Shown one piece after another: positions 34,856 to 57,382 of a stretch of DNA of 64,000 nt. A model generated the notes under the pieces. The model saw only the letters and a list, made by a program, of their open reading frames with translations, did not search any database and was not told the origin of the DNA. Within the stretch, counting starts at the first letter, position 1, and every line of letters begins with the position of its first letter. The stretch is from contig CAWJWJ010000001.1 of NCBI GenBank assembly GCA_963846575.1, positions 288,001-352,000 of the forward strand. Direction: 5' to 3'. The position numbers and the translations under genes are program-made. The DNA is from an uncultured Nitrospiraceae bacterium (lineage in GTDB: Bacteria; Nitrospirota; Nitrospiria; Nitrospirales; Nitrospiraceae).

Positions 34856-35185
34856 TTATTTTGCCACGAAGTGTTCGCGACGGCTTACCGCCACGTCACT
34901 GACGAACAGGGTCCCGGAATGTTTGGTAAATATGGGGCTGAGTCCGGCCAGGATCGGCTCAATCCGCTCCTCCGGCACGACCGTAAATACGATGACCTGG
35001 CTGCTGGTATCATTGAACAACAGGTGCCCCTCATGGAATCCATGATGCCCTTTTCCCGACACGCTGTTGATGATGGTATACCCGGTCGCGCCGACGCGAT
35101 CGAGCAGGTCCGTCACGAACTTCAGGTGCTCGCCTTGCATCACGATCTTAATTTCTTTCATGGGATGTAGCGTGAGTCCGCCCAT
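34856..35185 (-). CDS. PII-superfamily (SbtB/DUF190-like) protein
   Basis: MKEIKIV, GATGYTII..VSGKGHHG, GTLFVSDVAVSR. Confidence 0.85.
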   Translation of the reverse strand: MGGLTLHPMKEIKIVMQGEHLKFVTDLLDRVGATGYTIINSVSGKGHHGFHEGHLLFNDTSSQVIVFTVVPEERIEPILAGLSPIFTKHSGTLFVSDVAVSRREHFVAK

Positions 35186-38100
35186 CAGCTGCTCCTCCTT
35201 CTCCATGTAATGCCGTCCATCCGGTCAAGACTTCATACTGATACATCTTCGCATCATCGGGATCCAGCGCCACCAGCGATACCCACTCCAAGTCGAACAG
35301 TCGTTCGAGCAGGGGATGTTTCAGAATGATGGCTCGAATGCGCTCTCTCGGCGCCTCGATCACGGTGAGTAATCGCATCGGTTCGTGATAGGGCTCCGCG
35401 CCATTGAACACGGTTTGAGCCGGCAAGCCGATCCGGAGATCGCTGCTCACTCCGCTCATCACGCCCACTCGGGAGACCACATTATGGTAGACCTTGCTGC
35501 CACTCCCATACACTTCGTTATCGACCGTGGAAAAATAATGTTCCATGTTGATCCATTGGGCGACGACGAGGGGAGCGGTCATGATGGCTTCCAACAGTTT
35601 TCCTGAATCATCCTGCCGATGGTCGTAAGAATGAAGAAAAGCCCGTCCCTCTAAGTCGAGCGTTCGGGTGACGTCCCGTCGCCCGACGATGAGCAGGCTG
35701 TTCTTCGACAGGCCCCACTCGGGACGGACCTGCGCCCAATCCGTGCTCCTCCGCTGTGCGCGCATTTGCGCCACGCCCGCCTGCTGGGCGGCCGACAGGC
35801 CATCCAGCGCGATACCATGTTCGAGCGCGGCTTGCGCACCCGCCTCCTTGAGGTCCGCCAGCAGGCGGGACAGGTCTTTGCGATGGGTCGCCGGCACGTC
35901 TTCCATGTCCACGATCCGCACCTCATTACAGGTCGTGTCGTGCTCCGCGGCGAGAAAATGAGTATCGCTGGGAATCTTGATGCCCCGCGCCTTCAGCAAG
36001 TCACGGACGGAGGGACGGTTCGCCATCGACGCGAAGGCTCGTGCGTTCGGCAACCCGTTATTGCCGCCGCAGGCTCCGCAATCCAAAGCCGACTCATAGG
36101 GATTGTTGTCTGACGTACTGCCATGTGCGCAGAACACGATCAGCCTAGCGAAGTTGGAGGTGAATCCCATCAGCCGGAGCCCGGCTTCGACCCCGTAGGC
36201 CTGCTCCGCCACAGAAAACCCGTTCTGCGTGATACGAGCCAACCGGCTGGAGATGCCGCGGGGTGTGATATTCAACTGCTGCCGCAACCGCTCATACAGC
36301 GCGTCTTCGTCGGCGGGTGAAATCCCCAAGGTTTCGGCGACGTTTCCGTTCTTATGATCTTCGAGTCCCTCCAGCACCCGGATGCGGATCGTTTCGATCA
36401 ATGCTGGCGTGACGGATGACCCCCGCAAGTGGAACTCGTCGAGCAGGATCTGCCGGATATGCGCGCGCTGTTCCGCCGCGACGATCTCCACGGCCTCTTC
36501 TCTCGTCAGCTTATCAATCGTCATGGTCGTAGCCAAGGGCGGCAGAAAAATCTCTGTCAGCCATTGCTTGACCCGGTGGTACCAGAGCGGACAGAGCGTT
36601 TTCCCGAACAGCGGAAGACTGAAGAACCAACCCAACGCTTCCACCATGACGTAGGGAGTGATCACGTTTTCCTTGAGATCGTGCAGGAGCGCATGACCCG
36701 CCTTGGTGAGTTGCGCCGCAAAACGATGCCGCTCCGCCGTTTCGCCATGATAGCTGCGGGGGATCTCTCTGATCTGATTCTTGGGTTTCAGCAGCACCGG
36801 ACAATGCGTCACACTGTGCTCGGCGCCAAAAGACTGGTACTCCAGCGGAATACCGAAGAAGCCTGCCAGGCCGAAGGTTTCATAACCGCCGCGATTCTCA
36901 AGATGCCGCCGGAATACTTCTGAGCGCACGTCGATACAATGCACCATCTGCGCCAGGGGTCGCGACCGTTGAGTCACGCCGGGATGGTGACCCGTGGCCC
37001 GCAGCTGTTCCAGCGCGCCTTCCAGCTTGGCCACCACGTGATGGCGATGACGGGCTTCCATCGCCTGCAGCCATCGCCGGCCCTGCTGAGCAGGAGGAAA
37101 TCCTTCCAGCCAGTTGAGTAAGGTCGTCACATCGGAAGGCGTCGTTTCGAGGATGGCTTCCGCTGTGACAGACGTCGCGCGCGCGAGCGCCAACAGTTGC
37201 CGTGCCAAGGTCCGGGCCGTTTCTTGTGCACGCGCCTTGGCGGTCTCCTCGTAGATCTCCTTCCCCACCGCCTCCCACTCTTGCGGCGGCCTGGTGCGAG
37301 CCCTGACCAGTGCTTGAGCCTGCGCGGCGGCCGCTCGTGAAAGTTTCCCGCTGACGAGCTCGCGCCGCAGCCAGTACCCATAGGGAACGCTATGCATATA
37401 ATTGCGGATCGCATCGAAGCACCCGGCGATCCCGAGCTTTTCTTCGCAGTGCAGCGACACCAACTCGCGTTCATAAAACAATCGCACCGCCAGGTATTTG
37501 ACCAGGTCGATGGGATAGGTGGCCTGCCATGGATAATACTGCTCATCCGATCGCCACTTGATGAAGCCGGTCCAGCCCGGCAGTGCCGACAAGTGCCACG
37601 AGAGATAGGATTCCCAATTCAATTTGGGAATGCCCATGATGGCGAGGCTCTGAAGCAGTGCATCGTCCGACCGGTCTTCCAGGGCGGCAATCTTGTTCGG
37701 CCCGTTCTTCACCCCCAGCAATCCTAGACTGCTATCGTATTGCGCCAGCGCCTTCCAGGCCCGATAGAATTTCTCCTCGCGCCGCGGCATGGTCCACGAC
37801 GCCTCGCCTTCATCGAGGAACGCGCTGCACCACTTGATCATCTGCTCATTGATGGTCGAGACAATCTCCGTCCCGAGCGTCCGGTCGCACCAGACCGACA
37901 AGGGTTCTCTCGTGGGGAGTTCCACCGGTTCCCATGGAGTCAGTGGCACAAGAAATCGGTCTACCGTCTCGTTTAATGCCGTGGTGAGCCATGCGGTCAA
38001 TCGAGCGACCGGGTCATCCTCCCGAACGGAGGGTTCGGAAGGCTCCGGCGGGAGTTCGCCCAGTCCATGGATCATGGACAACCGAAGCACCTCCAGGTGC

Positions 38101-38420
38101 GAGAGCTCACGTCCGCCGAACAGGACGCGCTTCTCCACCGTGATGGAGGCGAGGACATCCGTGAGATCCTCGGCGCGAATGCGGCCCTGCTCAAAATACC
38201 GCCGGTACGTGGCAGTGGGGAGATAGCCCTGGCCCCCCAGCAGTTGCTCACCCCGCTTCACGGCTCGATCGAAGGGCAGTTCTTCCAGGCCATGAAGAGG
38301 ATTGTGGTGAATGAACGTCCGCATGGGCCAATAATGCGCGATCGCCTCACCGGCCAACTGCACATAAGAGCGCAGTTCCATCCGCTCTGTGTCTGAAGTT
38401 CTGACCTGTGCAGTACTCAT
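35148..38420 (-). CDS. dabA: inorganic carbon pump subunit DabA (DUF2309)
   Basis: WPMRTFIHHNPLHGLE, CIDVRSE, HGS, LDCGACGG Zn ligands, DWAQVRPEWGL. Confidence 0.93.
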   Translation of the reverse strand: MSTAQVRTSDTERMELRSYVQLAGEAIAHYWPMRTFIHHNPLHGLEELPFDRAVKRGEQLLGGQGYLPTATYRRYFEQGRIRAEDLTDVLASITVEKRVLFGGRELSHLEVLRLSMIHGLGELPPEPSEPSVREDDPVARLTAWLTTALNETVDRFLVPLTPWEPVELPTREPLSVWCDRTLGTEIVSTINEQMIKWCSAFLDEGEASWTMPRREEKFYRAWKALAQYDSSLGLLGVKNGPNKIAALEDRSDDALLQSLAIMGIPKLNWESYLSWHLSALPGWTGFIKWRSDEQYYPWQATYPIDLVKYLAVRLFYERELVSLHCEEKLGIAGCFDAIRNYMHSVPYGYWLRRELVSGKLSRAAAAQAQALVRARTRPPQEWEAVGKEIYEETAKARAQETARTLARQLLALARATSVTAEAILETTPSDVTTLLNWLEGFPPAQQGRRWLQAMEARHRHHVVAKLEGALEQLRATGHHPGVTQRSRPLAQMVHCIDVRSEVFRRHLENRGGYETFGLAGFFGIPLEYQSFGAEHSVTHCPVLLKPKNQIREIPRSYHGETAERHRFAAQLTKAGHALLHDLKENVITPYVMVEALGWFFSLPLFGKTLCPLWYHRVKQWLTEIFLPPLATTMTIDKLTREEAVEIVAAEQRAHIRQILLDEFHLRGSSVTPALIETIRIRVLEGLEDHKNGNVAETLGISPADEDALYERLRQQLNITPRGISSRLARITQNGFSVAEQAYGVEAGLRLMGFTSNFARLIVFCAHGSTSDNNPYESALDCGACGGNNGLPNARAFASMANRPSVRDLLKARGIKIPSDTHFLAAEHDTTCNEVRIVDMEDVPATHRKDLSRLLADLKEAGAQAALEHGIALDGLSAAQQAGVAQMRAQRRSTDWAQVRPEWGLSKNSLLIVGRRDVTRTLDLEGRAFLHSYDHRQDDSGKLLEAIMTAPLVVAQWINMEHYFSTVDNEVYGSGSKVYHNVVSRVGVMSGVSSDLRIGLPAQTVFNGAEPYHEPMRLLTVIEAPRERIRAIILKHPLLERLFDLEWVSLVALDPDDAKMYQYEVLTGWTALHGEGGAADGRTHATSHERN

Positions 38421-38458
38421 TCCGCTCCTGTCTGTTTCCGGTCCGTCTCGCCGTGCGG

Positions 38459-40123
38459 TTAGGTCCGTCGGCACTGTCTTCCTACGGCACGAACGAGATC
38501 CTCAACGTAGAGGCCGTTGAGAAAGGCCACGTACGCCCTCACGCGAACACGCTCTACCCATGACGGCATCAAGAGTCTGATTCCATGTGCCCTGCCGTAA
38601 ATGAAGATCCATGCCGCGACGATCAGCAAGGCAGACACGATGACGAATACGTCGAACAGGCTTTGATTCCACCCGGCGGCTTGGAAGTAGCCGGCGGCCG
38701 TTCCCGGCACCGGATATAAGAAATGTGTGAAGGCGTTCCCTGCCCAGAGATACGTAACTCCGATCAGCGACAACGACCCGAGCATGGTCAGGGACACCTT
38801 CCAGGAGGCCACGCCTTGTAGACGATACAAACTGAACACCGCCTGTGACGACGTCACCCAGCCGAAAAAGAGGAAGATCACCGATCCCTGCTCCTCGAGC
38901 AAGGGAATCTGCACGAGACCATGCGCGGCAAGCAGAATAATCAGCGGCAAAATAAGCGTGACTGCAAAACCCGTTGCCCAGGTGACCGGCGAAAAAGACT
39001 TGGCCTCCTCCACCTCCGAGACCGGCGGCAGTTTGAACTCCTCTCTCGCCTTGTGGATATTCGCTCCGGAGTTTAAGAACAGGGTGGCCTTAAACAGGCC
39101 GTGCGCGCAAAGATGGAAGACCGCGAGCGCGAAAGCGCCTAACCCGCACTCCATCACCATGTACCCCATCTGTCCCATCGTGGAATAGACGAGGGTCCGT
39201 TTGATGCTGGCCTGCGTCAACATCGTCGTAGCGCCGATCAAGGCCGTGAGCCCCCCGATCAGAAACATCAGATGCAGCGTCGTCGGCGCGAGCCCGTAGA
39301 GGGGCGCCATCCGGTTCACCAGAAACCCTCCGGCATTCACAATTCCGGCGTGCAGGAGGGCGGAGACGGGCGTCGGTGCCTCGATCGTCCCCGGCAACCA
39401 GATGTGAAAGGGAAACTGCGCCGACTTGGTCATCACCGAGAGTAGCAGGAGCAGGGTCGTGAGCGAGGACACATAGACCTCCGCCCCCACCAGAGGAATG
39501 GACAAGAGCGCCGGCGCCGCCTGGAGTCGACTGAACAGCTCGCTCAGCTCGAACGTGCCGTAGGCCTGATGCAGCACGACCAGCGCGCAGAGAAATGCCG
39601 CGTCGCCGATCCCTTGTATCCATAACGTTCTCCGGGCGGCTTTTCCCGCGGCCGGACTCGAAGAATTAAAGGCCAGCAGCGCGGCGAGCAGCCAGGTGAT
39701 CAAATGCCACCAGACAAACAACCAGAGCAGATTCCCGCTAGTCACAAGACTCAATAAGACGAACGTCAGGATTCCCAGGAGGGCAAAAAATCGAACATAG
39801 CCTCGATCACCCACCATGTACCGTGCGGAATACACATGGATGAGCAGGCTCACCAGACTGATCAGAACCAGCATGACGGCGGCCAGCCGGTCAACGACCA
39901 GCGTGTAGTCGAGTGCCCCGGACGGTAGGCCCCAGAGAACGAGGCGAATAGTCGCCCCTTGAACCACCAGCACCAGGGTCGAGAGGGAGGCCAGCGCAGC
40001 TATCCAGAGCGATACGATTCCGATCCGGGCCGTACGCTCGCCGAGATCCAGTCCGAAGGCCTTGATCAAAAGGGCACTGACCAACGGCGCAAAGATGGCG
40101 ACAAGGGGGATTATCGATTCCAT
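38459..40123 (-). CDS. dabB: inorganic carbon pump membrane subunit DabB (NuoL-like)
   Basis: KSAQFPFHIWLP.TIEAPTPVSALLHAG, HGLFKATLFL; adjacent to dabA. Confidence 0.92.
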   Translation of the reverse strand: MESIIPLVAIFAPLVSALLIKAFGLDLGERTARIGIVSLWIAALASLSTLVLVVQGATIRLVLWGLPSGALDYTLVVDRLAAVMLVLISLVSLLIHVYSARYMVGDRGYVRFFALLGILTFVLLSLVTSGNLLWLFVWWHLITWLLAALLAFNSSSPAAGKAARRTLWIQGIGDAAFLCALVVLHQAYGTFELSELFSRLQAAPALLSIPLVGAEVYVSSLTTLLLLLSVMTKSAQFPFHIWLPGTIEAPTPVSALLHAGIVNAGGFLVNRMAPLYGLAPTTLHLMFLIGGLTALIGATTMLTQASIKRTLVYSTMGQMGYMVMECGLGAFALAVFHLCAHGLFKATLFLNSGANIHKAREEFKLPPVSEVEEAKSFSPVTWATGFAVTLILPLIILLAAHGLVQIPLLEEQGSVIFLFFGWVTSSQAVFSLYRLQGVASWKVSLTMLGSLSLIGVTYLWAGNAFTHFLYPVPGTAAGYFQAAGWNQSLFDVFVIVSALLIVAAWIFIYGRAHGIRLLMPSWVERVRVRAYVAFLNGLYVEDLVRAVGRQCRRT

Positions 40124-40531
40124 GTATAGTGGCTCCGTATAAAAAACACGGGATGTACGCAGGCAGATCAGCAAAAACAGGACATGACGATCCTCTTTGG
40201 TACGACCCGAGGCCAGTCCAGTGACGGGTGAATCGATCGCCGGTCAAAACGGGCAATCGTCCGGGAGACTTGAGTGGGCCTCCCGGGCCTCAGCGCACGT
40301 ACGTCAAGCGGTGCAGACCTCCTGGTGAACGGGCCAGAATGGATTCCTGAGAAGCCGATCGGACAGTCGCCGTGCGTTAGCAGTGATCCACAACTCCCGG
40401 CGTGCCCCCGACGCAGCATCGAACGAAGGGAGAGAGGATCCCTCTGATTCAGAACATTCCACATCACAACACGACGTCTTTCTCAGGGCAGGTTCTGCCC
40501 GCAACCTCACATCCGTCTCTGTGCGAACGTG

Positions 40532-41206
40532 TTACTTCACCTTGGCGAAATCGGCGTCGAACTGCAACAGCTGTCCGTCCTGCAACGTCACAATCACGGT
40601 TGTCTTCGCATTGGGATCAAACGTATCGTAGGCAAAGCGGGCAGTAAATCGCGACCGATAGGGAGGACCCTCGCCGTCATTCTTTCTGCCCCGATCGGCA
40701 GGGCTCACGTCCACCGGCCGGATGGTTTTTCCCTTCTGCTGAAAGACCACGTCGGCCTTCTCCGCAAAGTATTCATCATCCCCGCAGATCTGCACCTCGA
40801 CTTCCATGTTCGGCATGTCCACGACCTTCTGGATAAACTCGTCGGGCATGCGCACTTCTTTTTTCTGTTTTTTTGATTCCGCGGCTTCCTGTCTCCCAAA
40901 CGCTTCGAGCCGATATCGTTTGGTGCGCAATATGGCGCTTGCGCCGCAGGGATCCTTTTCAGGGTCCGCGCCCACTCTCGTGACCAGGGAAGCCTGCTGC
41001 AACACCTTCTTGACGTCTTCCGGCGAATTGGCCTTTTCCATCGGCGTCCGTCCGGCCTCCAGGGTTTTTTTCGCGTCCTCGGGTGACAATTTAATGTCAA
41101 TGGCCCAGACCATCCCGCTGACTCCCCAGATGATCGACCCGACCACGACACCGGCCAGACCAAGGACTTCCCGCCGCCGAGCTGCCATTCCACGATGAGT
41201 GCGCAT
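40532..41206 (-). CDS. exported hypothetical protein
   Basis: Signal peptide (VWA/ID), RBS GGGAGG, two Cys, charged globular sequence. Confidence 0.75.
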   Translation of the reverse strand: MRTHRGMAARRREVLGLAGVVVGSIIWGVSGMVWAIDIKLSPEDAKKTLEAGRTPMEKANSPEDVKKVLQQASLVTRVGADPEKDPCGASAILRTKRYRLEAFGRQEAAESKKQKKEVRMPDEFIQKVVDMPNMEVEVQICGDDEYFAEKADVVFQQKGKTIRPVDVSPADRGRKNDGEGPPYRSRFTARFAYDTFDPNAKTTVIVTLQDGQLLQFDADFAKVK

Positions 41207-41291
41207 GAGTACCTCCCTGACGCATCACTGAATAATGAGGCGCATTGTAATGGGTCAGAGAAGAGCTTTTCAATCTCACAGCGCACATCAA

Positions 41292-41924
41292 TCAAGGTGC
41301 GAATCGAGCCCAATTCGGATAGGGTTTCACCGCGTACAATCGATCCACATCCGCCTGACAGGGCATTCCGCAGCGGCGCAACATGTCTGCCACCAGACGA
41401 AGCGGGAGGCCGACGGCGGCCGTGTAATCGCCGTCGATGTGATCGATCAACTCCCCGCCGGCGCCTTGAATGGAATAGGCACCGGCTTTGCCGAGACTCT
41501 CGCCGGTCCCCAGGTACGCCTTCAGGATGGCCTCGTCGAAGGGCTTCATCGTGACCCGCACGGTCGCAACCTCGACGTTGCAGCTCCCCTGACCGGCACG
41601 GACGAGGGCGACGGCGGTCACAATGTTGTGGGGTTTCCCTGCCATGCGCCGGAGCATGGCTTCGGCTTCGGCCAGGTCCCGCGGCTTCCCTAACACCTCC
41701 GAGCCCAGACTGATCAAGGTGTCGCTCCCGAGGATGAGCCCATCGAGAGGTGCGGCAAGGCAGGAGCGGGCCTTGCCCTCGGCAAATTCGGCTGCCTGCC
41801 GGTCGGCGGACAGCGCTGGCCTCACCTGCTCAACATATGGCGGACTCATCACGGCAAAGGGCACGCCGAGAAGTCTCAACAATTCATGACGTCTCGGCGA
41901 GGTGGAAGCCAGAATCAGCGGCAT
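41292..41924 (-). CDS. maf: Maf family nucleotide pyrophosphatase
   Basis: LILASTSPRR, GSDT, LGKP, KAGAYSIQ, VGLP. Confidence 0.92.
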   Translation of the reverse strand: MPLILASTSPRRHELLRLLGVPFAVMSPPYVEQVRPALSADRQAAEFAEGKARSCLAAPLDGLILGSDTLISLGSEVLGKPRDLAEAEAMLRRMAGKPHNIVTAVALVRAGQGSCNVEVATVRVTMKPFDEAILKAYLGTGESLGKAGAYSIQGAGGELIDHIDGDYTAAVGLPLRLVADMLRRCGMPCQADVDRLYAVKPYPNWARFAP

Positions 41925-41928
41925 GGGC

Positions 41929-43110
41929 TCAGGACGCGCAGGGCAGAAGGGGCCGAGTCTCGCAAGAAGGCGTCTCAAGCGGATCCTGCCCATCCATAAG
42001 GTCGCCGCAATAATCCGCCACCACGCGCTCGACCTCACGGGCATTCGCAACCTGAAACATCTTGCCTCGCATCGCGGCGGCATGAGGAAACCCTGTGCAG
42101 TACCAACCAAGATGTTTGCGGATGGAACGGAATCGCTCCAAGCCGGCGATGGCTTCATACTGCCGCGCGTGATCCAGCATCACCTGCATCCGCTGCTTGA
42201 GTGAGATCTGCGGCTCCCAGGCATGGGTGGCAAGTCCCGACAGGTCAGCCCGGTCCGCGAATGCCCGGCGGGCCTTTTCCTTTTCACGAAAAAACCATGG
42301 GGCGCCCAGCGTTCCCCGACCAACCAACACACCCTGCACGCGAGTCTCCACGGTGCGGCGGATGGCTTCCACCAAGGTATTGAGATCGCCGTTGCCGAGG
42401 ATGAGGGTGTCCGTCCCACAGGCCAGCTTGGCCGCTTCGGCGATGGCAGACCAGTCGGCGGCTCCTCGATACATCTGCTGCAGCGTCCGCCCGTGCACCG
42501 TGATCGCCGCGGGTGCGGCCTCCAACAAATGCTCGACCCATCGGCCGACCACCACGCAATCAAACCCCAGTCGAGTTTTGATCGAGAGCGGCAGCAGCCG
42601 GCGGGCAACAGTCGGCACACCGGATCGACTCAGGTTCAATCTCTGAATGAATTCAATGCGGGAGGGCTTAAATCCTTGTGTCTCGATCGATTGACCGTCG
42701 GCCCAGTCGTGAAGCCCTTGCTTGGCAGCCCGCACGATGGCATGGGCCACATCCGGCGTCTTGATCAAGGCCGCCCCTGATCCGGAGGCCGCCACGTTCT
42801 TCGAGGGACAGCCCATGTTGATGTCGAGTCCATCGAATCCCATTTCACAGACCACCTGGGCCGCGCGGTAGAACAGCTCCGGATCCTTGCCATACAATTG
42901 CGCCACGACGGGACGTTCAGCCTCGCTGTACACCAATGACGACAACAGATGATCCGGACCGCGACAGATTTCGCTCACATTGGTGAATTCGGTGAAGGTG
43001 ATATCAGGCCGTCCCTGTGTGGCCACCACCCGACGAAAGGTGGCGTCAGTCACGCCGTCCATCGGGGCCAACCCCAGAATCGGTTGCGGAAGCGTCGCCC
43101 AGAAGTTCAT
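41929..43110 (-). CDS. dus: tRNA-dihydrouridine synthase family protein
   Basis: LAPMDGVTD, DINMGCP, KTRLG, VHGRT, GNGD, LVGRG. Confidence 0.92.
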   Translation of the reverse strand: MNFWATLPQPILGLAPMDGVTDATFRRVVATQGRPDITFTEFTNVSEICRGPDHLLSSLVYSEAERPVVAQLYGKDPELFYRAAQVVCEMGFDGLDINMGCPSKNVAASGSGAALIKTPDVAHAIVRAAKQGLHDWADGQSIETQGFKPSRIEFIQRLNLSRSGVPTVARRLLPLSIKTRLGFDCVVVGRWVEHLLEAAPAAITVHGRTLQQMYRGAADWSAIAEAAKLACGTDTLILGNGDLNTLVEAIRRTVETRVQGVLVGRGTLGAPWFFREKEKARRAFADRADLSGLATHAWEPQISLKQRMQVMLDHARQYEAIAGLERFRSIRKHLGWYCTGFPHAAAMRGKMFQVANAREVERVVADYCGDLMDGQDPLETPSCETRPLLPCAS

Positions 43111-44585
43111 CCCCGCACCTCCTCCGACTCGACCGGTTCGTTCGCCGTACGGTACGCTGCCCGCAACTCCACGGACTCTTCCATGGCGGTGGCGGCGGCG
43201 GAAGGACAGCCGTCGGCCACGAACTCGACAAACCGGTCGACCTTGAGGAGGAAAAAGTCATAGTCCTCCTCTTCCGGCCTCGGTGTGCTGAACCAGAACG
43301 CGGTGAACCGCTCGACCGGAAGATTCGCCGCCGTGATGAGCTGGCAGGTCCGCGGAAACATATCCGTCAATTCGCCACCCCAATGGAGCAACTCTTGAGG
43401 AACATAGGTCTGGCGATACCGATCCAGATCCTCGATCGATCCACCCAGCAATGAAAGACCTGCTGGTACCGGGCGACGGTCAGAAGTCACGAGTGCCACA
43501 TAGTCTTCATACTGTCGCACAAGCGTCGCCATTTCGTCGGATGCCACACTCGCATTCTGCGCAGAAGCCGGCAGAGCCTGTCTGGCCCCTCCCTGCAGGA
43601 ACTCGACACGACCCGCCTGGCCTGAGTATCGAACCTTCGACTCAAACCGGTCGCTAAAGCGCCGAAACTCCGTCACGATCTCCGTGACCGGTTTGGTGTC
43701 GACCTCCAATGCCACGCCTTTCAATGCGGTTAGCCGCGGATGGGCCAGGACCTGAACCAACAGGTCAAACAAGACCTCAGGAATGGGACTCCCATGGCTA
43801 TCGATCCAATAGGGCAATCCCGGGAGTAGCGCATCATGTTCAGAACCGGGATGCCTGGCCAATGGTGCCAGACCGGCCACATGAATTTCGATGACCCGCT
43901 CCATCGGAAAAGCATCCAGAAACCCCGCAACAAAATCCTGCAGCGCCTGACTGCGCCAAACACCCGTGTACCGGTAGACAGTCCACAAATGGCCGATGTC
44001 GAGGACCAGCCCGCAGGCCACCCGTTCTGTCACGGCACGGAAAAAATCGGGAATCCCGGATGAGCCGCAGGCGAAATAGGTCAGCGGCGGCATCTCCAGC
44101 AGTACCAGTGCAGGGGCGCGTCCTGCACGTTGCCCCCATGCATCCACTCGTCCCTGCACATATTCTAAATTGTCGGCCGTTATCCTGGCCGATAGCTCCG
44201 TATACAACGGGGGTAAGTATGTGCCGAATGCGTAGCCGCCAATTTGTTTCGACGCGCATTCATGATTCAGCCATGCGCTCTCCAGCGTGCCGACCTGGAT
44301 ACAGGCCTCCGCAACCCCGTGCTGCCCCGAGAAGCTCCGGGCAAAATGAGGCTGGGTCAGCCATAACCCTTCGCCGTGATAGGTGAGCTTCAGTTCCGGA
44401 AGCCGGCGCCGGACCCACCGCAGCGCGGACGTCGTCGCCTTGAAGATCTCCAAGTACCCCGGTTGCAATCCTTCTTCGCGGAGGCTTCGGACGAGCTCCA
44501 TGAGGTCCGGAGTATAGACATCCACCGACAGCCCCAACCCATGCGCCGGGATCAGATTCGCACGTTGTGAGAATTCGCTTTCCAT
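43107..44585 (-). CDS. DUF692 multinuclear non-haem iron oxidase (MNIO) family protein with C-terminal extension
   Basis: GLGL, YLEI, HGEGL, LLEMPP, LDIGHL, EIHVAG, IDSHGSPIP, LEVD follow the order of DUF692 iron ligands. Confidence 0.85.
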   Translation of the reverse strand: MESEFSQRANLIPAHGLGLSVDVYTPDLMELVRSLREEGLQPGYLEIFKATTSALRWVRRRLPELKLTYHGEGLWLTQPHFARSFSGQHGVAEACIQVGTLESAWLNHECASKQIGGYAFGTYLPPLYTELSARITADNLEYVQGRVDAWGQRAGRAPALVLLEMPPLTYFACGSSGIPDFFRAVTERVACGLVLDIGHLWTVYRYTGVWRSQALQDFVAGFLDAFPMERVIEIHVAGLAPLARHPGSEHDALLPGLPYWIDSHGSPIPEVLFDLLVQVLAHPRLTALKGVALEVDTKPVTEIVTEFRRFSDRFESKVRYSGQAGRVEFLQGGARQALPASAQNASVASDEMATLVRQYEDYVALVTSDRRPVPAGLSLLGGSIEDLDRYRQTYVPQELLHWGGELTDMFPRTCQLITAANLPVERFTAFWFSTPRPEEEDYDFFLLKVDRFVEFVADGCPSAAATAMEESVELRAAYRTANEPVESEEVRG

Positions 44586-44775
44586 CGTGTCGCGTTTGGC
44601 ATACTTTGAGGTGAGCATAGTGACTATAGTTCTTGTGCAGTCTAAGCGCCTAACCTCTTGGTTGACAAGGGAAGATGGGGAAGCTGATCCAACAAATCGA
44701 TCTGGTATACTTCCTTTCGACGTGGAGGTTGCCGGACCGGAAACGTCAGCCTCTCTCGCGGCGAGAAACAGGCTT

Positions 44776-45558
44776 ATGCAAATGACAAAGTCCGGCTACA
44801 TGCTCCGCGACAAACCGTCTCATCACTCATCCTCTATGGTAGCTCACATGATGACCCCCGGCGTCGTACAGGTTCCCGGAGATGTCTCCGTGAGCGAAGC
44901 TGCCCTGCTCCTCGACCGGGAACGGATCCCCTGTCTGTTGGTGAAGGATAGCGACACCACCTTCGGCATCATGACCTCCGGTGATATCGTCAAAAAAGTC
45001 GTGGCCCAGGGGCTTGAGCCGCAGGATGTGGAAGTCCGGTCCATCATGTCGAAACCGGTGCATTCGATTGAATGCGATCAGATCCTCGATGATGCCACCA
45101 GCGTGATGGCCTCGACCGGCGCGTCCCTTTTAATTGTCACGAAGCAAGGCCAGCCGGTGGGCATCCTGACCGCACGCGACCTGGCCTTGGCTCCGAAGCG
45201 TTGCGACACATGCCTTCCCGCCACGCTGCGCGTGACGAATGGCGAAGGCGAAGGGGCCAAACACACCGCCACCATCCGGCAGCTCAGTCACGTCGGCGCC
45301 TTCATCGAAAGTCGCACCCTGCTCCTACCCGGCACGACCGTGGTGCTCTCCTTCATTCTACCCGGCACGGATTTAAGCTTTTCTCTGCGCGGCACGATCC
45401 TCAACAGCAGTTTTGAGCCGGACCTGTCGGAAGACGAGGGGACAATGGGAAACAATCCCGGGGTGGATATCCAATTCGCGCCCCTTCCTTCGTCCGATGA
45501 GTCGAAAATTCGCGCCTGGGTGCTGCAGAATGTGCCGCGTAGCTCTGAGCTTTCCTAA
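44776..45558 (+). CDS. CBS-pair plus PilZ-like domain protein
   Basis: MMTPGVV..GIMTSGDI / IMSKPV..GILTARDL; C-terminal LSHVGAFI...GVDIQF PilZ fold. Confidence 0.8.
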   Translation: MQMTKSGYMLRDKPSHHSSSMVAHMMTPGVVQVPGDVSVSEAALLLDRERIPCLLVKDSDTTFGIMTSGDIVKKVVAQGLEPQDVEVRSIMSKPVHSIECDQILDDATSVMASTGASLLIVTKQGQPVGILTARDLALAPKRCDTCLPATLRVTNGEGEGAKHTATIRQLSHVGAFIESRTLLLPGTTVVLSFILPGTDLSFSLRGTILNSSFEPDLSEDEGTMGNNPGVDIQFAPLPSSDESKIRAWVLQNVPRSSELS

Positions 45559-45657
45559 ACATCCTCAGATGAATCTTTGCTTCGCCGACGACAGGTTGTT
45601 ATGATTTCCTGCGCGGACGATACGCGTCCGAGTACACCGTGCGTTAGGTAACCACTG

Positions 45658-46713
45658 ATGAAAAGCCCTGCCGCTCGATCCAAACCGGCTCTGACCAAAG
45701 ACGAAATTCTCACACAACTCGGCCCCCTGCTCGACCGCCCGGACGACGATATTCAGGCGGCGCTCATGAAGGAAATCCTTACCGGCGTCATCCGGCTGGC
45801 GGACTCGCAGTTGGACGTCCTGGATCTGAAAATCGTCAATCGTGCCTTGAAGGAACTCCGACATGCCTTCAGGGTGTTCCAAGGGTATCGGCATCGCCTC
45901 AAAGTCAGCGTGTTCGGATCGGCCCGCACCCCCGTCGACGATCCCAATTATGTGTTGGCCTTTCAGTTCGCGCGGCGCATGGTGGAAGAAGGATATATGA
46001 CCATCACCGGGGGCGCCGACGGCATCATGCGGGCATCCCAGGAAGGCGCCGGTCGGGAGCATAGTTTCGGGGTCAACATTATGCTGCCGTTTGAGCAGGG
46101 AGCCAATGCCGTCATTGCTGACGACCCTAAGCTTGTCACGTTCAAATACTTCTTCACTCGCAAGCTCATGTTCCAGAAAGAATCCCATGCAATCGCCCTG
46201 TTTCCCGGCGGGTTCGGCACCCACGATGAAGGCTTCGAAATCCTCACGCTTGTGCAAACCGGCAAAAGCGACCCCAAGCCTATCGTATGCCTGCAGGCTC
46301 CGGGATGCGACTACTGGAATCACTGGCACACATTCATTACCGAACAACTGCTGAAACGGCACCTGATCAATGCCGAAGACCTCGCCCTCTTCACGATCGT
46401 TGACAATGTGGAAGATGCAGTCACCGAAATCCGTTTGTTTTACCAGCGGTACCACTCACTCCGGTTTGTGGGACGCCAGCTCGCCATCCGGATGAAAAGC
46501 CCCTTGACCGAGGTGCAAGTTGAGGAGATTCGCGCTCAATTCAGCGATATGCTGACGGAGGGCACCTTTGAACAACGGCCGTCCCTGCCTGAAGAAATCG
46601 ATGAACCGGGACTGAAAGATCTCTCGCGCCTGGCGTTTACGTTCAATCGCCGGAACGCCGGTCGTCTGCGGCAACTCATCAATCACCTCAATCGACTTCC
46701 CGCGTCGACGTAA
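45658..46713 (+). CDS. LOG family nucleotide 5'-monophosphate nucleosidase-like protein
   Basis: SVFGSART, ITGG..GIM, FKYFFTRKLMF, PGGFGTHDE. Confidence 0.9.
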   Translation: MKSPAARSKPALTKDEILTQLGPLLDRPDDDIQAALMKEILTGVIRLADSQLDVLDLKIVNRALKELRHAFRVFQGYRHRLKVSVFGSARTPVDDPNYVLAFQFARRMVEEGYMTITGGADGIMRASQEGAGREHSFGVNIMLPFEQGANAVIADDPKLVTFKYFFTRKLMFQKESHAIALFPGGFGTHDEGFEILTLVQTGKSDPKPIVCLQAPGCDYWNHWHTFITEQLLKRHLINAEDLALFTIVDNVEDAVTEIRLFYQRYHSLRFVGRQLAIRMKSPLTEVQVEEIRAQFSDMLTEGTFEQRPSLPEEIDEPGLKDLSRLAFTFNRRNAGRLRQLINHLNRLPAST

Positions 46714-46810
46714 GCAGATTCGACCGATAGCGGAATGTCCGCTGACATCGCCTGCTCCTCCGAGATACCCCTTTAGTCCCCGTCGACGGACATGCTAAGG
46801 TTGAACGCAT

Positions 46811-47682
46811 ATGAACGCAGCCTCCATGCGAAGTTCTGTTCCTACTGACCCCACGCTGATCCTCTACCATGGGGATTGTGCCGATGGTTTCGGTGCCGCT
46901 TGGGCCATCTGGACGCGTTATCCCGCCGCACGCTATCAAGCCGTGAAACACGGGGAAGCTCCCCCACGGACCTGGCCGGGCAACACATCGTGATCGTGGA
47001 TTTCAGCTATCCCCGGCCGATTCTCGAAACCATCGCGGAGAAAGCCGCCAGCCTGGTGGTCCTCGATCATCACATCACCGCCGAACAGACGCTGGCCGAT
47101 CTCCCCTACGCCTATTTCGATTTGCAAAAATCTGGGGCGGTGCTCGGATGGGAATGGGCGCATGATGAGCCGACACCGTGGTTGCTACGTTATATTCAAG
47201 ACAAAGATTTATGGCACTGGGCGCTGCCGAACAGCCGGGAAATCAGCGCCGCCCTGGCCTCCTACCCCTTCGACTTTGCGCTATGGAGCGGATTCCAGCA
47301 GCAGGAATTAGAACGGGATGGTCGCGCCATACTCCGCTATGAAAACGAGCTCGTGACGAAGCTGTCCTCACAAGCGACGATGATGCACTTTGAGGGCGTG
47401 ACGGTTCCCGCCGTTCATAGTCCGCTCCTTACCAGTCAAATCGGCGAACGCCTGTCAGCCGATTTCCCATTCTGCCTCATCTGGCACGACCGCAACGGGC
47501 GACGCTACTACAGCATGCGTTCCCGCGAGGAGGGAACCGACGTCGGCTCGATTGCCGCATCGTTTGGAGGCGGCGGCCATACCCACGCAGCCGGATTTTC
47601 GGTTCCGTTAGAGGCCGACGGCTCGCTTCCATCGAATCCTCGATTGCCGCGACCAGCTGCCTCACAGCCAGACCACAGGTGA
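46811..47682 (+). CDS. DHH/DHHA1 phosphoesterase; apparent -1 frameshift in the C-run at ~46961-46965
   Basis: YHGDCADGF, VDFS, LDHH, GGGGHTHAAGF split over two frames. Confidence 0.88.
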
Positions 47683-47685
47683 CCG

Positions 47686-48387
47686 ATGCTCCCCCTCAAT
47701 GACGATACCCCGACCGACAGCACGCCGGTCGTCACCGTCACCTTCATCGTCGCCTGCTCTCTTGTGTTTATGTATCAAAGCGCCCTCCTCCCGGCTCCCG
47801 GAGAAATGTTCGTGTATCAGTACGGTGCGATTCCGGCCATCCTGTTCGGTCATGCGGCCCTCCCGCCTGAAGCCATGGCGATCCCCGCCTTCACGACCGT
47901 CCTGACCAGCATGTTCCTGCACGGCAGCTGGATGCATCTGATCGGCAATATGCTGTACCTCTGGGTCTTCGGCAACAACATCGAAGATGTGATGGGAGCA
48001 ACAAAATTCGTTGTGTTTTATCTGCTGTGCGGCATCGTAGCCGCGTTCAGCCATGCCCTTACGGACCCCACATCTGCAATTCCGATGGTCGGCGCCAGTG
48101 GTGCGATTTCGGGGGTATTAGGGGCCTATTTGTTGCTGTTCCCCCACGCCAGAATCCTGTTACTTGCCCCGCTGGTGGGAACCACCTATGTGCCGGCCGG
48201 CTTCGTGCTGGGATTCTGGTTCGTGATGCAGATCCTGAGCGGGGGGGCGAGCCTCGTATCGCAAGGAGGCGGAGTTGCCTTCTTCGCGCACATCGGAGGG
48301 TTTGTGGCGGGTATGGTGCTGATCGGCTTCTTCAAACGGCCGGAGGTACGGTTCTTCACCCCTGCCCGCAGCTCCTCATGGCGTTAG
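47686..48387 (+). CDS. rhomboid intramembrane serine protease
   Basis: FLHGSWMHLIGNM, GASG, AHIGG. Confidence 0.93.
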   Translation: MLPLNDDTPTDSTPVVTVTFIVACSLVFMYQSALLPAPGEMFVYQYGAIPAILFGHAALPPEAMAIPAFTTVLTSMFLHGSWMHLIGNMLYLWVFGNNIEDVMGATKFVVFYLLCGIVAAFSHALTDPTSAIPMVGASGAISGVLGAYLLLFPHARILLLAPLVGTTYVPAGFVLGFWFVMQILSGGASLVSQGGGVAFFAHIGGFVAGMVLIGFFKRPEVRFFTPARSSSWR

Positions 48388-52410: not shown

Positions 52411-53847
52411 GTGCAGCGTATCCGCGAAGGACTCAGGAACAGGATCCGCTCCTTCGTCACCCAACACACGGGCCTGGACGAAATGGCCGTCGATGACCTT
52501 GCCACATCGACGAAATTGCAGTCCTGGGAAGCCGTCCAAATTCCGGAACGGCTCCGGTTCTCGTCCCGCCTGGCCATTCTCCTGGTCGGGCTCTTCATCC
52601 TGATCGTCGCGTTTGTCCCCTGGACCCAAACCATCACGGTCACCGGCCAACTCTCCGCCTATTCGCCCTTTGAACGGCCGCAGGATATTGAAGCGCAGAT
52701 TACCGGTCGCATCAAAAAATGGCACGTCTTCGAAGGCGTGCGCGTCACAGCCGGAGACGTGATTCTCGAACTCGAAGACTACGATCCAAGTTTCATGGCG
52801 CCGGATCTCCTCGGCTTGCTCGAGCAACGGAAGAAAGCCTTGGAGGACACCCGCAAGGCCGCGCTGAGTCGAGCGGACCAGTTGGAGAAGCGGATCAAGG
52901 AGATGCAGAACCTCGTCAAGGCGGCGGTGCCCTCGGCCGGCGCCCGGATCCAAGAGGCAGAAAGCAAGGTGCGTGAAGCACGGCAGAAGATCGAAGCCGC
53001 CAAAATCGCCGTGGCGACGGCCGAACTCAATAGGGCACGTCACCAGGAACTTGCCAAGAAAGGCCTCGTATCGCAACGCGAGTTGGAACTCACCATTCAA
53101 GCCGCCATCGCCAGCAAGGCTGATTTGCAAGGCGCACAGGCCAACCTCAGCGCAGCCGAGCAGGGCATGAAGGCGCTGGGTTTCGGACGAGACCAGGTGA
53201 GCGCTGAAATGCTCCAACGACTCCTTGACGCTGAAGCTTCGCGGGACGCGTCCATCGGAGAAGCGGCGAAAGCTGCCGATCAGGTCGCCGAGGTGTCCTT
53301 ACGACTCTCCAATGCGAATCAGCGCCGGGTGGCCGGACGCATTCTCTCGCCGATCGACGGAACCGTCGTGAAGATGGTGCAGGCCGGCGCGGGCGAAACG
53401 GTTCGGCCGGGGGATAAACTGGTGAGAATTTCCCCCAGCAGCGCGGACAAGGCTATCGAAATGGTCGCCGACGGTATTGATGCTCCGTTGCTCAATGTCG
53501 GGCGAAAGGTGAAGATCCTTTTCTATGGCATCCCTGCCATCCCATTGCCGGCCTGGCCGGAACTGATGGCCGGTACCTATAACGGCGTGATCAAGGTCAT
53601 CGACCAGGTGGATGACGGGAAAGGAAACTTTCGCTTCTGGGTGGTCCCCGATCAGGAAGAGCGACCCTGGCCGCCGCAAGAACATGTCCGACAGGGAACG
53701 AAGGCCATGGGATGGGTCATTCTCAACCGGGTCCCGCTATGGTATGAACTGTGGCGCCGTTTCAATCTGTTTCCGCCCGACTATCAGGAACGGCCCCCGA
53801 GTTTGATCGATACGCTCTTGCCGAAGGCCGGGCGAGGAGCCAAATAG
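52411..53847 (+). CDS. HlyD-family membrane fusion protein
   Basis: TM, PWTQTI..G, ITGRIKKWHV.EG, long coiled coil, ILSPIDGTV, VPLWYELWRRFN. Confidence 0.9.
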   Translation: MQRIREGLRNRIRSFVTQHTGLDEMAVDDLATSTKLQSWEAVQIPERLRFSSRLAILLVGLFILIVAFVPWTQTITVTGQLSAYSPFERPQDIEAQITGRIKKWHVFEGVRVTAGDVILELEDYDPSFMAPDLLGLLEQRKKALEDTRKAALSRADQLEKRIKEMQNLVKAAVPSAGARIQEAESKVREARQKIEAAKIAVATAELNRARHQELAKKGLVSQRELELTIQAAIASKADLQGAQANLSAAEQGMKALGFGRDQVSAEMLQRLLDAEASRDASIGEAAKAADQVAEVSLRLSNANQRRVAGRILSPIDGTVVKMVQAGAGETVRPGDKLVRISPSSADKAIEMVADGIDAPLLNVGRKVKILFYGIPAIPLPAWPELMAGTYNGVIKVIDQVDDGKGNFRFWVVPDQEERPWPPQEHVRQGTKAMGWVILNRVPLWYELWRRFNLFPPDYQERPPSLIDTLLPKAGRGAK

Positions 53848-53924
53848 CACTTTCCCCCTGACTGGCGCGATCGTACCGAACGCTTCATCTCCTCGATTCT
53901 TACTCTTCCGAAAGGAGTGGCCTG

Positions 53925-55415
53925 ATGAAGAAGTCTATATGGGTATTGGTTCTGGCAGCCTGTGCACTCTGCTGGCTCCCCGAAGGGAGCGTGGCCGGGG
54001 ATGACGCCGGCAAATCCAGAACGCTTCCGCCGATTCCCCTTTCATTAAACGAGGTATTGGCCTGGATCGATCGATCCCATCCCCTGCTGAAGGGAGCCGG
54101 CACCGAAAAGGTTTCGGCGCGCGGCAAAATGCTCAAAGCCCTGGGCGCGTTCGAGCCGGTATTTATCAACGACACCGAGATCGAACGTTTTATCGAAAAA
54201 GGTACGTCCAAAACCCAAAGCGTAGGATTTAACGATACCTTGGTCGAAGCACGGACGCCCTGGGGATTCCGTGGCAGCGCGGGCGTCCGGCAGGCCATCG
54301 GCGAGGCGAGAATCCCCGACCTTTCCTTCGGCAACGGCAATCAACAGGTCATTCTCGGCGGCTTTCTGCCTCTTCTGAAAGGGCTCATGGTGAATCCTGA
54401 AAACGCCGAGCTCCAGCGCTCGGAGCTGGCGGATCCCCGTGCCGATGTGAAGATTTCTCAAACGAGACAGGACCTGTTCCTCGCCGCAGCCAGCCAGTTC
54501 TGGGATTGGGTCTCTTCCGCCAAATTCGTGGATATACAACGCCGGGCCCTGGGCGTCGCGGAGGAACGGTTGAAACAGGTTGAAGGCAGGGCAAAGGCCG
54601 GGGCCGTGGCACCGCTGGATGTGGTCGAGGCCGGGCAGGAAGTACAGCGTCGACGCGAGGTCTCAATCGCCGCCCAACGAGCGATCGAACAGGAGCAGTA
54701 CCGGATGTCGATGTTCCTCTGGGAGAACCAGGCGCCGAGCGCCCCCCAACTCGATCGCGCGCCGGACTTTCCTCCTTCAGCCGGCGCCCCGACGGCGGAA
54801 ACCGTCAAAGCCGACAAACTACAGGCCAAAACCGATCGCCCGGAGATTCGCGAGGTCGAGATCGAAGCGAAGGTTAACAATATCGATTTGGAGTTAGCCA
54901 AAAACAATCTCCTGCCCAGTCTGGACCTCGAAGCCGCGCCGGCACGCGCCCCGGAGAAATTCGTACTCGGGCTCGGCTACCGGTTTGGAGTGGAACTGCG
55001 CATGCCAATCCTCCAGCGGAGGAGCCGGGGAGAAGTCTTGGAAGCACAAGCCCAGGCCGATCGTCTGGTTCTCGTCCAGAAATACCGTGAGCAGCAGGTC
55101 GTCGTGGATGTCGATAACGCCCTGTCGGCCATCGAGCGGGCCAAAGAACGGGTGACCGCGGCTTCGGAATCCCTCCGCATGGCCAAAACGCTGGAAGAAG
55201 GCGAGCGGTTCCGGTTCAGCCTGGGGGCCACGAGCGTGCTGTTTGTGAACTTACGTGAACGGAACTCCGTCGATTCGGAAATGCAACTGGTACGGGCCAA
55301 AGCGGATTATCAAAAGGCGCTGGCCCTCTACCAGTGGGCCACGGGCACCTGGGCGAGAAGTCAGCCGTCGGCTGTGCCGGTCAACTATCGGATCGGTGCA
55401 GGCGTCTCCAAATAG
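53925..55415 (+). CDS. TolC-family outer membrane protein
   Basis: Signal peptide, LSLNEVL..HPLL, ERFRFSLGATSVLFVNLRE. Confidence 0.88.
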   Translation: MKKSIWVLVLAACALCWLPEGSVAGDDAGKSRTLPPIPLSLNEVLAWIDRSHPLLKGAGTEKVSARGKMLKALGAFEPVFINDTEIERFIEKGTSKTQSVGFNDTLVEARTPWGFRGSAGVRQAIGEARIPDLSFGNGNQQVILGGFLPLLKGLMVNPENAELQRSELADPRADVKISQTRQDLFLAAASQFWDWVSSAKFVDIQRRALGVAEERLKQVEGRAKAGAVAPLDVVEAGQEVQRRREVSIAAQRAIEQEQYRMSMFLWENQAPSAPQLDRAPDFPPSAGAPTAETVKADKLQAKTDRPEIREVEIEAKVNNIDLELAKNNLLPSLDLEAAPARAPEKFVLGLGYRFGVELRMPILQRRSRGEVLEAQAQADRLVLVQKYREQQVVVDVDNALSAIERAKERVTAASESLRMAKTLEEGERFRFSLGATSVLFVNLRERNSVDSEMQLVRAKADYQKALALYQWATGTWARSQPSAVPVNYRIGAGVSK

Positions 55416-55551
55416 TGGCATTTTGCGCGATGCTCTGTTAACGTTTGTCGAATGACGGGATCCTGTGCCGACGGGCTCCGATCCACGATGTGAGACTCCT
55501 CTCCCCTAGTCCGGGCAAGATGTCGGGAGAAGCCCGGTAGGGGTGGCAGCC

Positions 55552-57219
55552 ATGGCAGAAGACCGGTCCGACAAACAAATTAATCTTTTTCAAACGGTCG
55601 TCGGCCACCTCGGCCTCCTGATCCGCATGGAACGGCGGATCCTGGGCCTCATCTTTTCCTATTCCATCGCCATCGGGCTGTTTGCGCTGATCGTTCCTCT
55701 CACCGTTCAAGAACTTGTCAATACGTTTGCGTTCGCCATCCAGCCCATCACGATCGTGACCCTCGCGGTGGTAATGGTCACAGCCCTGTTGTTCGTCGGC
55801 GCGTTCCGCGCGTTGCAGTATTACGCTGTCGAAGTGCTGGAACGGCGAGTGTTCGCCCGCGTCGCCATTGCGATGGCCCAGCAACTCCCGCATCTGCGAT
55901 ATCAGGGGTTCAAGCCCCGTTACGCTAATATCTTCATGGAAACCATCCTGATGCAACGGGCCGTCTCGGTCCTGTTGGTGGACTTGATCAACGTGGTCGT
56001 GGGTGGCGCGGTCGGCATGTCCATCCTGGTCTTCTACCATCCGTATTTTCTCCTCTACAACGCCATCCTGCTGCTCGGGTTCAACGTGGTGTTCTTTCTG
56101 ATGAGCCATGGCGGCCTCAGGGCCGACCTGGACCTCTCTCATGCAAAATACGACACGTTGCACTGGTTTCAAGAAATCGCCTACAACCTGCTGCACTTCA
56201 AATCGACCGACAGCCAGACGCTCCTGATCAGAAAAACCGATCAGCTGGTGGATACCTACATCAGCGTGCGCAAGACCCGGTTCGGCGTGTTGATCCGGCA
56301 GTACCTGGGATCGGTAGGATGGCAAGCCATCGCGCACAGCGGCCTGATAGCGACCGCCGGCTGGTTGCTCGGAATCGGCCAACTGACACTCGGACAATTT
56401 GTCGCAGCCGAGGTGGTGGTCAGCGGAATTTTGTCGAGCTTCGACGGGGTGGTAAAGCGGATGGGACATATCTACTATTTCCTGACCGCACTGAGCGAAC
56501 TGAACTTTCTGTTCTCGCTACCGAAAGATCAAGATACCGCGAGCCTCGCCATTCCGCTTCCCGATCCGACCGTGCACGGCATCCGGGTTACCTGCAAGGA
56601 TCTGACCTTCTCCCCCCCGGGCGGCACACCCGTGTTCGAGCACTTCGATCTGGAAGTCACGCCGGGCGAAAAGATCGGCATTTATGCCGAGACGACGAAG
56701 GCCAAAACCGTGCTGGCCCGTGTGCTCGGCGGTTTGGACTCCCCTACCTCCGGTGTCATCCGCTACAACGGTGTGGACCTGCGACATCTCAATCTTGATT
56801 CGGTGAACCGATTCAGAGGATTCATTCTAGACTCCCAATTATCGCTGTTCGAAGGTACGCTCGAGGAGAACATCGTGCTCGGCCGGGACTACATTCCCTA
56901 CAGCGACTTGCGCTGGGCGCTCCGGTTTGCGGAACTCGAAGAAGAAGTCGATGCCTTGCCCCAGGGTTTGAAAACGCATATCCGGAACACCGGAAAGATT
57001 TTCGCGCCCACCCACATCGTACGGATCCTCGTGGCGCGGGCCATTCTGGGCCGGCCTCAACTCCTCATATTCGAGGGAATCCTGCACAATATGCCGTCGG
57101 CGATGCGGGAAACTATCATCAGGCGACTGTGCAGCAAGGAGGAACCCTGGTCCGTGATCTTTGTCTCCAATGATCCCAACCTCACCTCGCATGTCGACCG
57201 CCGCATCATGCTCAGTTGA
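55552..57219 (+). CDS. ABC exporter (TMD + NBD) with degenerate NBD, subunit 1
   Basis: TMD with GQLTLGQFVAAE; NBD motifs AETTKAKT / FAPTH / LLIFEG / VSND. Confidence 0.88.
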   Translation: MAEDRSDKQINLFQTVVGHLGLLIRMERRILGLIFSYSIAIGLFALIVPLTVQELVNTFAFAIQPITIVTLAVVMVTALLFVGAFRALQYYAVEVLERRVFARVAIAMAQQLPHLRYQGFKPRYANIFMETILMQRAVSVLLVDLINVVVGGAVGMSILVFYHPYFLLYNAILLLGFNVVFFLMSHGGLRADLDLSHAKYDTLHWFQEIAYNLLHFKSTDSQTLLIRKTDQLVDTYISVRKTRFGVLIRQYLGSVGWQAIAHSGLIATAGWLLGIGQLTLGQFVAAEVVVSGILSSFDGVVKRMGHIYYFLTALSELNFLFSLPKDQDTASLAIPLPDPTVHGIRVTCKDLTFSPPGGTPVFEHFDLEVTPGEKIGIYAETTKAKTVLARVLGGLDSPTSGVIRYNGVDLRHLNLDSVNRFRGFILDSQLSLFEGTLEENIVLGRDYIPYSDLRWALRFAELEEEVDALPQGLKTHIRNTGKIFAPTHIVRILVARAILGRPQLLIFEGILHNMPSAMRETIIRRLCSKEEPWSVIFVSNDPNLTSHVDRRIMLS

Positions 57220-57382
57220 CCGACTGCCGCATGAATCTCCCGACGCGCTGGTCGCCCGGAATCTCGCTCCCCGAAGCCGCTGCCATGAATGCCCGGCCCA
57301 TACCCCGTCGCGGTCCTGAGGACGGGACACCGGAACGGTCGGCCTCCTTGACAGACCTCCTGCGTTTCCTCAGACTGCCTTC

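Follow-up and report, generated by a model that had tools for sequence, protein, structure and literature searches.

A single-chain MNIO (DUF692) enzyme without an RRE, retained in Nitrospira and Leptospirillum-type bacteria outside any classical peptide gene cluster

Oxidative enzymes that depend on multinuclear non-haem iron (MNIOs; DUF692, PF05114) are tailoring enzymes in patchy peptide gene clusters. The characterised MNIOs described in PMC10880893 and PMC13174530 act on peptides, and PMC12452194 suggests that some precursor-less members modify bona fide proteins. Here, we analysed the sole PF05114 gene found in the 4.2 Mb, 99.9% complete genome of an uncultured Nitrospiraceae bacterium, which lies in a stretch of 64,000 nucleotides (the window; contig CAWJWJ010000001.1, positions 288,001 to 352,000) and whose closest homologues are proteins named Nitrospira. 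We found that this gene encodes an MNIO superfamily member that belongs to no named subfamily and to no classical cluster for peptides that are ribosomally synthesised and modified after translation (RiPPs). It carries its partner in the same chain and behaves as a core gene of Nitrospira, which are key nitrifiers, and of Leptospirillum-type iron oxidisers.

Among the described systems, TglH–TglI of 3-thiaglutamate biosynthesis (PDB 8HCI/8HI7; PMC10880893) comes closest in fold, to the barrel and also, with TglI residues 2-155, to the C-terminal domain. In TglI, a helical domain grips the enzyme and a RiPP recognition element (RRE) binds the leader (PMC10880893); the window MNIO, by contrast, is one polypeptide instead of two, holds the helical part only, and has neither a TglA-like peptide nor a PEARL enzyme beside it. 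MbnB–MbnC of methanobactin biosynthesis (PDB 7DZ9) shares the barrel fold, and an invariant Asp of the window clade, two residues past the last Glu ligand, may match the proposed general base of MbnB, as judged from its position and not from an alignment. However, MbnA and the transporter and receptor cluster are missing here, and a core single-copy gene stands against a patchy cluster. The bufferin and oxazolin MNIOs likewise have a DUF2063-like helical partner after the enzyme, and PMC12452194 divides such partners into DUF2063-RRE proteins (PME-type 1) and short RRE-less ones (PME-type 2). The window MNIO differs in that its partner is fused, its locus has no DUF2282, DoxX or extracytoplasmic function (ECF) sigma gene, and its scores reach a small fraction of the cut-offs for BufB (32 of 310) and HvfB (23.5 of 360); canonical MNIOs occur separately in some related genomes. 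The best-scoring NCBIfam model for the window MNIO and for most of its nearest relatives is ApyH, the aminopyruvatide MNIO, with 38.9 bits for the window protein against a cut-off of 400, and aminopyruvatide cluster genes were not seen. None of the 12 proteins scanned, relatives among them, reached the cut-off of a named subfamily; the TglH model was absent from the lists.

The assignment to the MNIOs is carried by sequence and fold alike. PF05114 matched with 44.8 bits (cut-off 25), the fold model has a mean predicted local distance difference test score (pLDDT) of 91.4, and a fold search with the barrel placed TglH, MbnB and 3bww at ranks 1-9. In TglH, iron is held by H71, H107, E151, D184, N187, H216, D229, H231 and E258 (PMC10880893). 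The window equivalents are given in the same order in Table 1: seven of the nine are identical, while His107 is replaced by Glu, a mapping that comes from a sub-threshold segment, and Asn187 by His; the position of the catalytic Asn73 holds E/D. Each of the nine positions, as well as D296, is invariant in 46/46 aligned sequences. The variant ligand motifs NHEC and DIGH, noted in a sequence-only reading of the window, are indeed present, as is its FPRT motif; within NHEC the invariant residue is the Glu, the His occurring in 39/46.

Are these replacements a peculiarity of Nitrospira? A profile search of 1.84 billion representative sequences returned near-full-length clade members at 343-657 bits, followed by other MNIOs at 127 bits or less. 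All 22 of the nearest outside relatives aligned have Asp/Glu in place of His107 and His in place of Asn187, so that the swaps are not peculiar to Nitrospira. Judged from these alignments, the clade appears to represent a wider branch with a different metal-ligand set that fits no named family model. Six further long MNIOs of the same ligand-swapped branch (P0299, P0300, P0310, P0315, P0318 and P0322; 421-646 aa) have C-terminal extensions, which suggests repeated enzyme-partner fusion.

The altered metal site also raises the question of another chemistry for the barrel: its substrate could be a small molecule or cofactor, or it could be a metallohydrolase of a non-oxidative kind, like endonuclease IV or CbiR. 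We consider this unlikely. A His at the Asn187 position together with a carboxylate at the His107 position would fit such an enzyme, since endonuclease IV presumably has a His at the equivalent position. Endonuclease IV is also the first non-MNIO fold match (rank 10), CbiR matches weakly (12.3 bits against a cut-off of 105, E 0.088), and neither RRE nor precursor is present. However, MNIOs outrank hydrolases in both the fold and the profile searches, the swaps recur in all 22 outside relatives, of which 9/9 scanned score best on MNIO models, and an MNIO-type partner domain is fused or adjacent in all full-length members aligned.

This C-terminal domain is a fused MNIO partner of the DUF2063/TglI/MbnC type, for which split genes are stronger evidence than fold scores. 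In three loci (L307, L308 and L309) a stop closes the barrel gene, and a second, overlapping open reading frame (ORF) encodes the partner. The L309 pair aligns to window MNIO residues 4-310 (40%) and 354-484 (27%); its flanking genes are bamD/cysG-like on one side and NfeD/SPFH on the other, neither dus nor maf occurs in the 8 kb examined, and no precursor is evident. In addition, seven proteins of 141-155 aa match the partner domain alone, six of which begin with Met at the domain boundary. Stand-alone partners were recovered by the profile search; a single-sequence search for short ones had given 11 matches, mostly from short contigs. A wide fold search over 48,161 chains placed TglI and NGO1945, a DUF2063 protein, at the top (Z 6.1 and 5.9) and MbnC eighth (Z 4.7), Foldseek ranked TglI first (E 0.89, probability 0.72), and the domain matched MbnC-like clusters in the Atlas at 0.89, at lead level only. 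On their own, such model-based scores could arise by chance with a helical domain. Pfam found no family in the C-terminal domain of the window protein and none consistent across 38 members, and a sequence search of the PDB was uninformative.

The sequence-only reading had described the C-terminal ~150 aa as a fused DUF2063/RRE-like partner. The DUF2063-like half of that description holds, with TglI as its nearest likeness, and the RRE half has to be dropped: residues 347-484 are modelled as helices only, no strand follows residue 294 in the full model, none appears in the domain model, and the protein ends 8 residues past the domain, which leaves no RRE beta-sheet.

How widely is this enzyme retained? 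Across 401 genomes of the phylum, an orthologue was found in 79/79 Nitrospiraceae (the family of the window, f1), in 25/25 of the Leptospirillum-type family (f23), and, among other families, in 7/40 of f2 and 2/2 of f3; f8 gave one weak match and the remaining families sampled gave none. The partner-domain profile showed a near-identical pattern with one match per positive genome (24/25 in f23, none in f8). After gltD, where the gene lies in f2, no remnant was seen in 4/4 MNIO-negative f2 genomes checked. A quick tree, in which f23, f2 and f3 each form a single group, f1 is not resolved and the dus link is not dated, is compatible with vertical descent and losses. One orthologue (G257:C1:2894098-2895542) is interrupted by stops.

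Does the tight linkage to dus and maf indicate a common function? The sequence-only reading took it as a sign that the enzyme might act on tRNA or a nucleotide. We counted linkage in 80 Nitrospiraceae loci, restricted to those with enough flank, and found dus downstream of the MNIO gene in 77/77, maf in 71/71 and the exported gene in 64/65. The divergently transcribed neighbours are just as conserved (DHH 66/66, LOG 65/68), and hence the whole block is syntenic. Loss of the linkage among orthologues had been set beforehand as the refuting result, and this is what is seen outside Nitrospiraceae: in loci from 20 of the 34 MNIO-positive genomes of f2, f3 and f23, dus, maf and the exported gene were found within ~7.5 kb of the MNIO gene in 0/20. 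There, the gene sits after gltD in f2, while in f3 it is followed by genes for a pseudouridine synthase and a B12 radical SAM protein, and in f23 by a lipoprotein gene and CheW-CheZ; in a fifth neighbourhood (f6), bamD-cysG-NfeD-SPFH surround a split form. No recognised RiPP precursor family occurs in any of the five.

Across whole genomes, too, Dus and the MNIO occur independently. Searches of 8 f23 genomes gave a full-length Dus in none (four without a match, four with short weak matches), in a family in which the MNIO is found in 25/25, and Dus is retained in 5/5 MNIO-negative f2 genomes tested. The f23 genomes without full-length Dus include two single-contig ones; their tRNA may be free of dihydrouridine, or a very divergent enzyme may make it.

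We therefore regard a joint role of the MNIO with Dus and Maf in modifying tRNA, rRNA or a nucleotide as improbable. The 4-nt overlap with dus, kept in 71/77 Nitrospiraceae loci, the overlap with a pseudouridine synthase gene in 2/2 f3 loci, and the universal single-copy retention in two families, which fits RNA-modification enzymes, all speak for such a role. Set against them, beside the lost linkage, the missing Dus and the equally conserved divergent neighbours, is the MNIO stop that likewise overlaps a lipoprotein gene in four f23 loci, and no RNA-binding domain was detected. Moreover, the f3 adjacency probably arose when a single region was reshuffled, rather than being a second, independent link, because the pseudouridine synthase orthologue sits in the window at 60009-60725, 15.4 kb upstream of the MNIO gene; in G251, an f3 genome, one contig carries the MNIO gene, dus and the exported gene within 55 kb. 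The dus-maf link is a matter of gene order persisting in a single family, and a tempting false lead is thereby removed.

The same reading had named the exported two-Cys protein encoded at 40532-41206 as a possible folded substrate. The protein is encoded downstream in nearly all Nitrospiraceae loci and is exported and Cys-bearing like some MNIO substrates. However, it was found in 27/27 f2 genomes, of which 20 are MNIO-negative, against 0/13 f23 genomes, all MNIO-positive, and it is unlinked in f2 and f3; we give this proposal next to no credence. By lost linkage and lost co-occurrence, Dus, Maf and the exported protein were rejected as partners of the MNIO.

The orphan status claimed for the enzyme is supported, and a non-classical target is probable. 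Small ORFs (20-140 aa) of 76 Nitrospiraceae loci were clustered; none of the 25 largest clusters was a conserved precursor-like one, and those shared with the window were shadow frames of known genes.

In f23 there is one lead, a ~100-aa secreted His/Lys-rich protein with a signal peptide (L041:1388-1690, L035:6909-7223 and relatives). It is found in 24/25 f23 genomes and lies upstream of the MNIO gene on the same strand within 8 kb in 20/25, adjacent (310-341 bp) in three and on other contigs in four. Both Cys are invariant in 9/9 aligned sequences, with an invariant core C-N-H-H...H-H-R-C-Y-P. The MNIO might thus mature lineage-specific small secreted metal-binding (bufferin-like) peptides, such as this one in f23, and PMC12452194 describes signal-peptide Cys precursors as the commonest MNIO substrates. 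We consider this decidedly unlikely for several reasons. The window genome has no homologue of the peptide, and f1, f2 and f3 gave weak matches only (E 0.002 or worse). CheZ is equally tightly linked (12/12 loci), so that the linkage of the peptide may be synteny; one f23 genome carries the MNIO but no such peptide, and the composition resembles that of the acid-shock protein Asr and BRANT proteins (below cut-off or at lead level). Furthermore, PMC12452194 ties signal-peptide precursors to full DUF2063-RRE partners, whereas the RRE is missing here. A complex prediction of the f23 enzyme with the peptide, which scored 0.02, speaks neither for nor against the pairing. Whatever its link to the MNIO, the f23 protein is a possible acid- or metal-tolerance protein.

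Two other candidates were rejected. A flagellin or motility link, raised by the CheZ and PilZ neighbours, does not match the distribution: flagellin was not found in 7/13 MNIO-positive f1 genomes and is present in the MNIO-negative genomes G154 and G220. Two unlinked signal-peptide proteins of 72-74 aa, L096:3388-3609 (G000:C1:877387-877608, plus strand) and L097:3378-3599 (G000:C2:1716377-1716598, minus strand), consist of three near-repeats of an acidic/Lys-rich unit mostly ending in KKGGH, contain no Cys, and have short spacers that resemble signal-peptidase sites. They were found in 14/19 f1, 0/27 f2, 0/2 f3 and 0/13 f23 genomes and so do not share the distribution of the MNIO, with the caveat that searches readily overlook short peptides. 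These KKGGH-repeat proteins could yield short metal-binding peptides. Elsewhere, at G000:C2:2818780-2823042, several small secreted proteins with 6-8 Cys share an 'RRG[VI]EGE'-like C-terminal tail and may form a sorted or processed peptide family.

Based on these observations, we lean, at about even chances, towards an oxidase that acts in trans on an unlinked protein or peptide. The single chain combines a catalytic barrel with a fused helper; it probably uses a di- or tri-iron centre and O2, and the group oxidised would be a side chain in a protein or peptide whose gene lies elsewhere in the genome. The use of iron and O2 is suggested by analogy with TglH and MbnB, and the helical domain may serve as a scaffold, as the N-terminal domain of TglI does; hydroxylation or Cys oxidation would be the likeliest chemistry. 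Because the RRE is missing, the substrate would be recognised without a leader peptide, and because the neighbours of the MNIO gene are unrelated housekeeping genes in each lineage, the target would be of a housekeeping type.

Several findings weigh against this trans-acting oxidase. No substrate was identified: when the window genome was compared with 83% of one f23 genome (2.0 of 2.4 Mb), 104 ORF pairs (at most 260 aa, at least two aligned Cys) proved to be shared, and among the pairs listed no candidate emerged, all reading as housekeeping, Fe-S or zinc-ribbon proteins or shadow frames. The two swapped ligands mean, as far as the alignment can tell, that oxidase chemistry is not guaranteed, and the partner domain has modest fold scores. 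In two lineages, an RNA-modification gene lies directly downstream with an overlap (dus in f1, pseudouridine synthase in f3). Finally, the MNIO was not found in 33/40 f2 genomes; it is dispensable in most of that family, which argues against an essential target.

More tentatively, and at somewhat less than even chances, this core, RRE-less, one-chain MNIO with a re-wired metal site may carry out an undescribed O2-dependent modification of a folded housekeeping protein (or RNA) in aerobic nitrite- and iron-oxidising Nitrospirota. If so, the MNIO family would move from peptide natural products into primary cell physiology. The general idea of RRE-less partners and speculated protein substrates is already in print (PMC12452194). 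The main text of that paper does not name Nitrospira or Leptospirillum, its table lists their DUF692 genes, and its figures or supplements may place the clade in a small cluster. In the literature searches, we found no account of DUF692/MNIO in Nitrospira or Nitrospirota, and no paper with the six Nitrospira/Leptospirillum DUF692 accessions of that table. As a one-chain enzyme, the protein should be easy to express, which makes substrate and metal directly testable.

Table 1. Features of the MNIO locus (positions in the window)
Feature	Coordinates	Strand	Basis
MNIO (DUF692/PF05114), 492 aa: TIM barrel (~residues 1-330), flexible linker and fused helical partner domain	43107..44585	-	Pfam, fold model
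Catalytic barrel, predicted metal ligands H70, E109, E164, D196, H199, H235, D262, H264, E294, and invariant D296	43596..44585	-	Alignment, mapping to TglH
Fused partner domain (residues 347-484), all helical, resembles TglI N-terminal domain and DUF2063, without RRE sheet	43134..43547	-	Models, split genes L307/L308/L309
dus, tRNA-dihydrouridine synthase with an intact NxGCP motif; neighbour in the operon and, as the evidence stands, no functional partner	41929..43110	-	Pfam, linkage tests
maf, Maf-family nucleotide pyrophosphatase; operon neighbour	41292..41924	-	Pfam
Putative exported two-Cys protein, no Pfam family; found across the order; not co-distributed with MNIO	40532..41206	-	Pfam scan, distribution

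The gene order given by the sequence-only reading was confirmed. The MNIO ORF runs from the ATG at 44585 to the TGA at 43107; an upstream ATG at 44618 would give 503 aa, and same-genus relatives begin at the 44585 position. The dus ATG (43110) overlaps the MNIO stop by 4 nt (43107-43110), a 4-nt gap separates the dus stop from the maf ATG, and the exported gene follows, its product having Cys87 and Cys141 and a hydrophobic N-terminus that was read from the sequence and not by a signal-peptide predictor. Ahead of this gene lies a weak promoter-like site (41273-41244; 2 sites found against 1.6 in shuffles). In the Pfam scan, Dus scored 189.8 and Maf 171 bits, and the exported protein matched no family above the cut-off. 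The dus gene is the sole one found in the genome; the Pfam match of its product is split in two by an insert of ~40 residues, as it is in all f1-f3 genomes searched. Rfam gave nothing at gathering scores over 38000-48000.

The flanking genes include CBS-PilZ, LOG and DabA. Of the precursor ORF, DoxX, ECF sigma factor and transporter that had been reported absent nearby, the first three are indeed missing, with neither DoxX nor ECF sigma among the seven window proteins scanned by Pfam, whereas transporters are present: DabA, by Pfam, and an ABC/HlyD/TolC-like cassette at 52411-59086, neither of which was seen in the loci of other families. The cassette resembles type I secretion (HlyD-like, TolC-like and two ABC transporters), as judged from the ORF sequences without a domain scan. 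The region 34856-40174 appears to hold DabAB inorganic-carbon transporter genes and a small downstream P-II-like gene, DabA being assigned by Pfam and the others from sequence.

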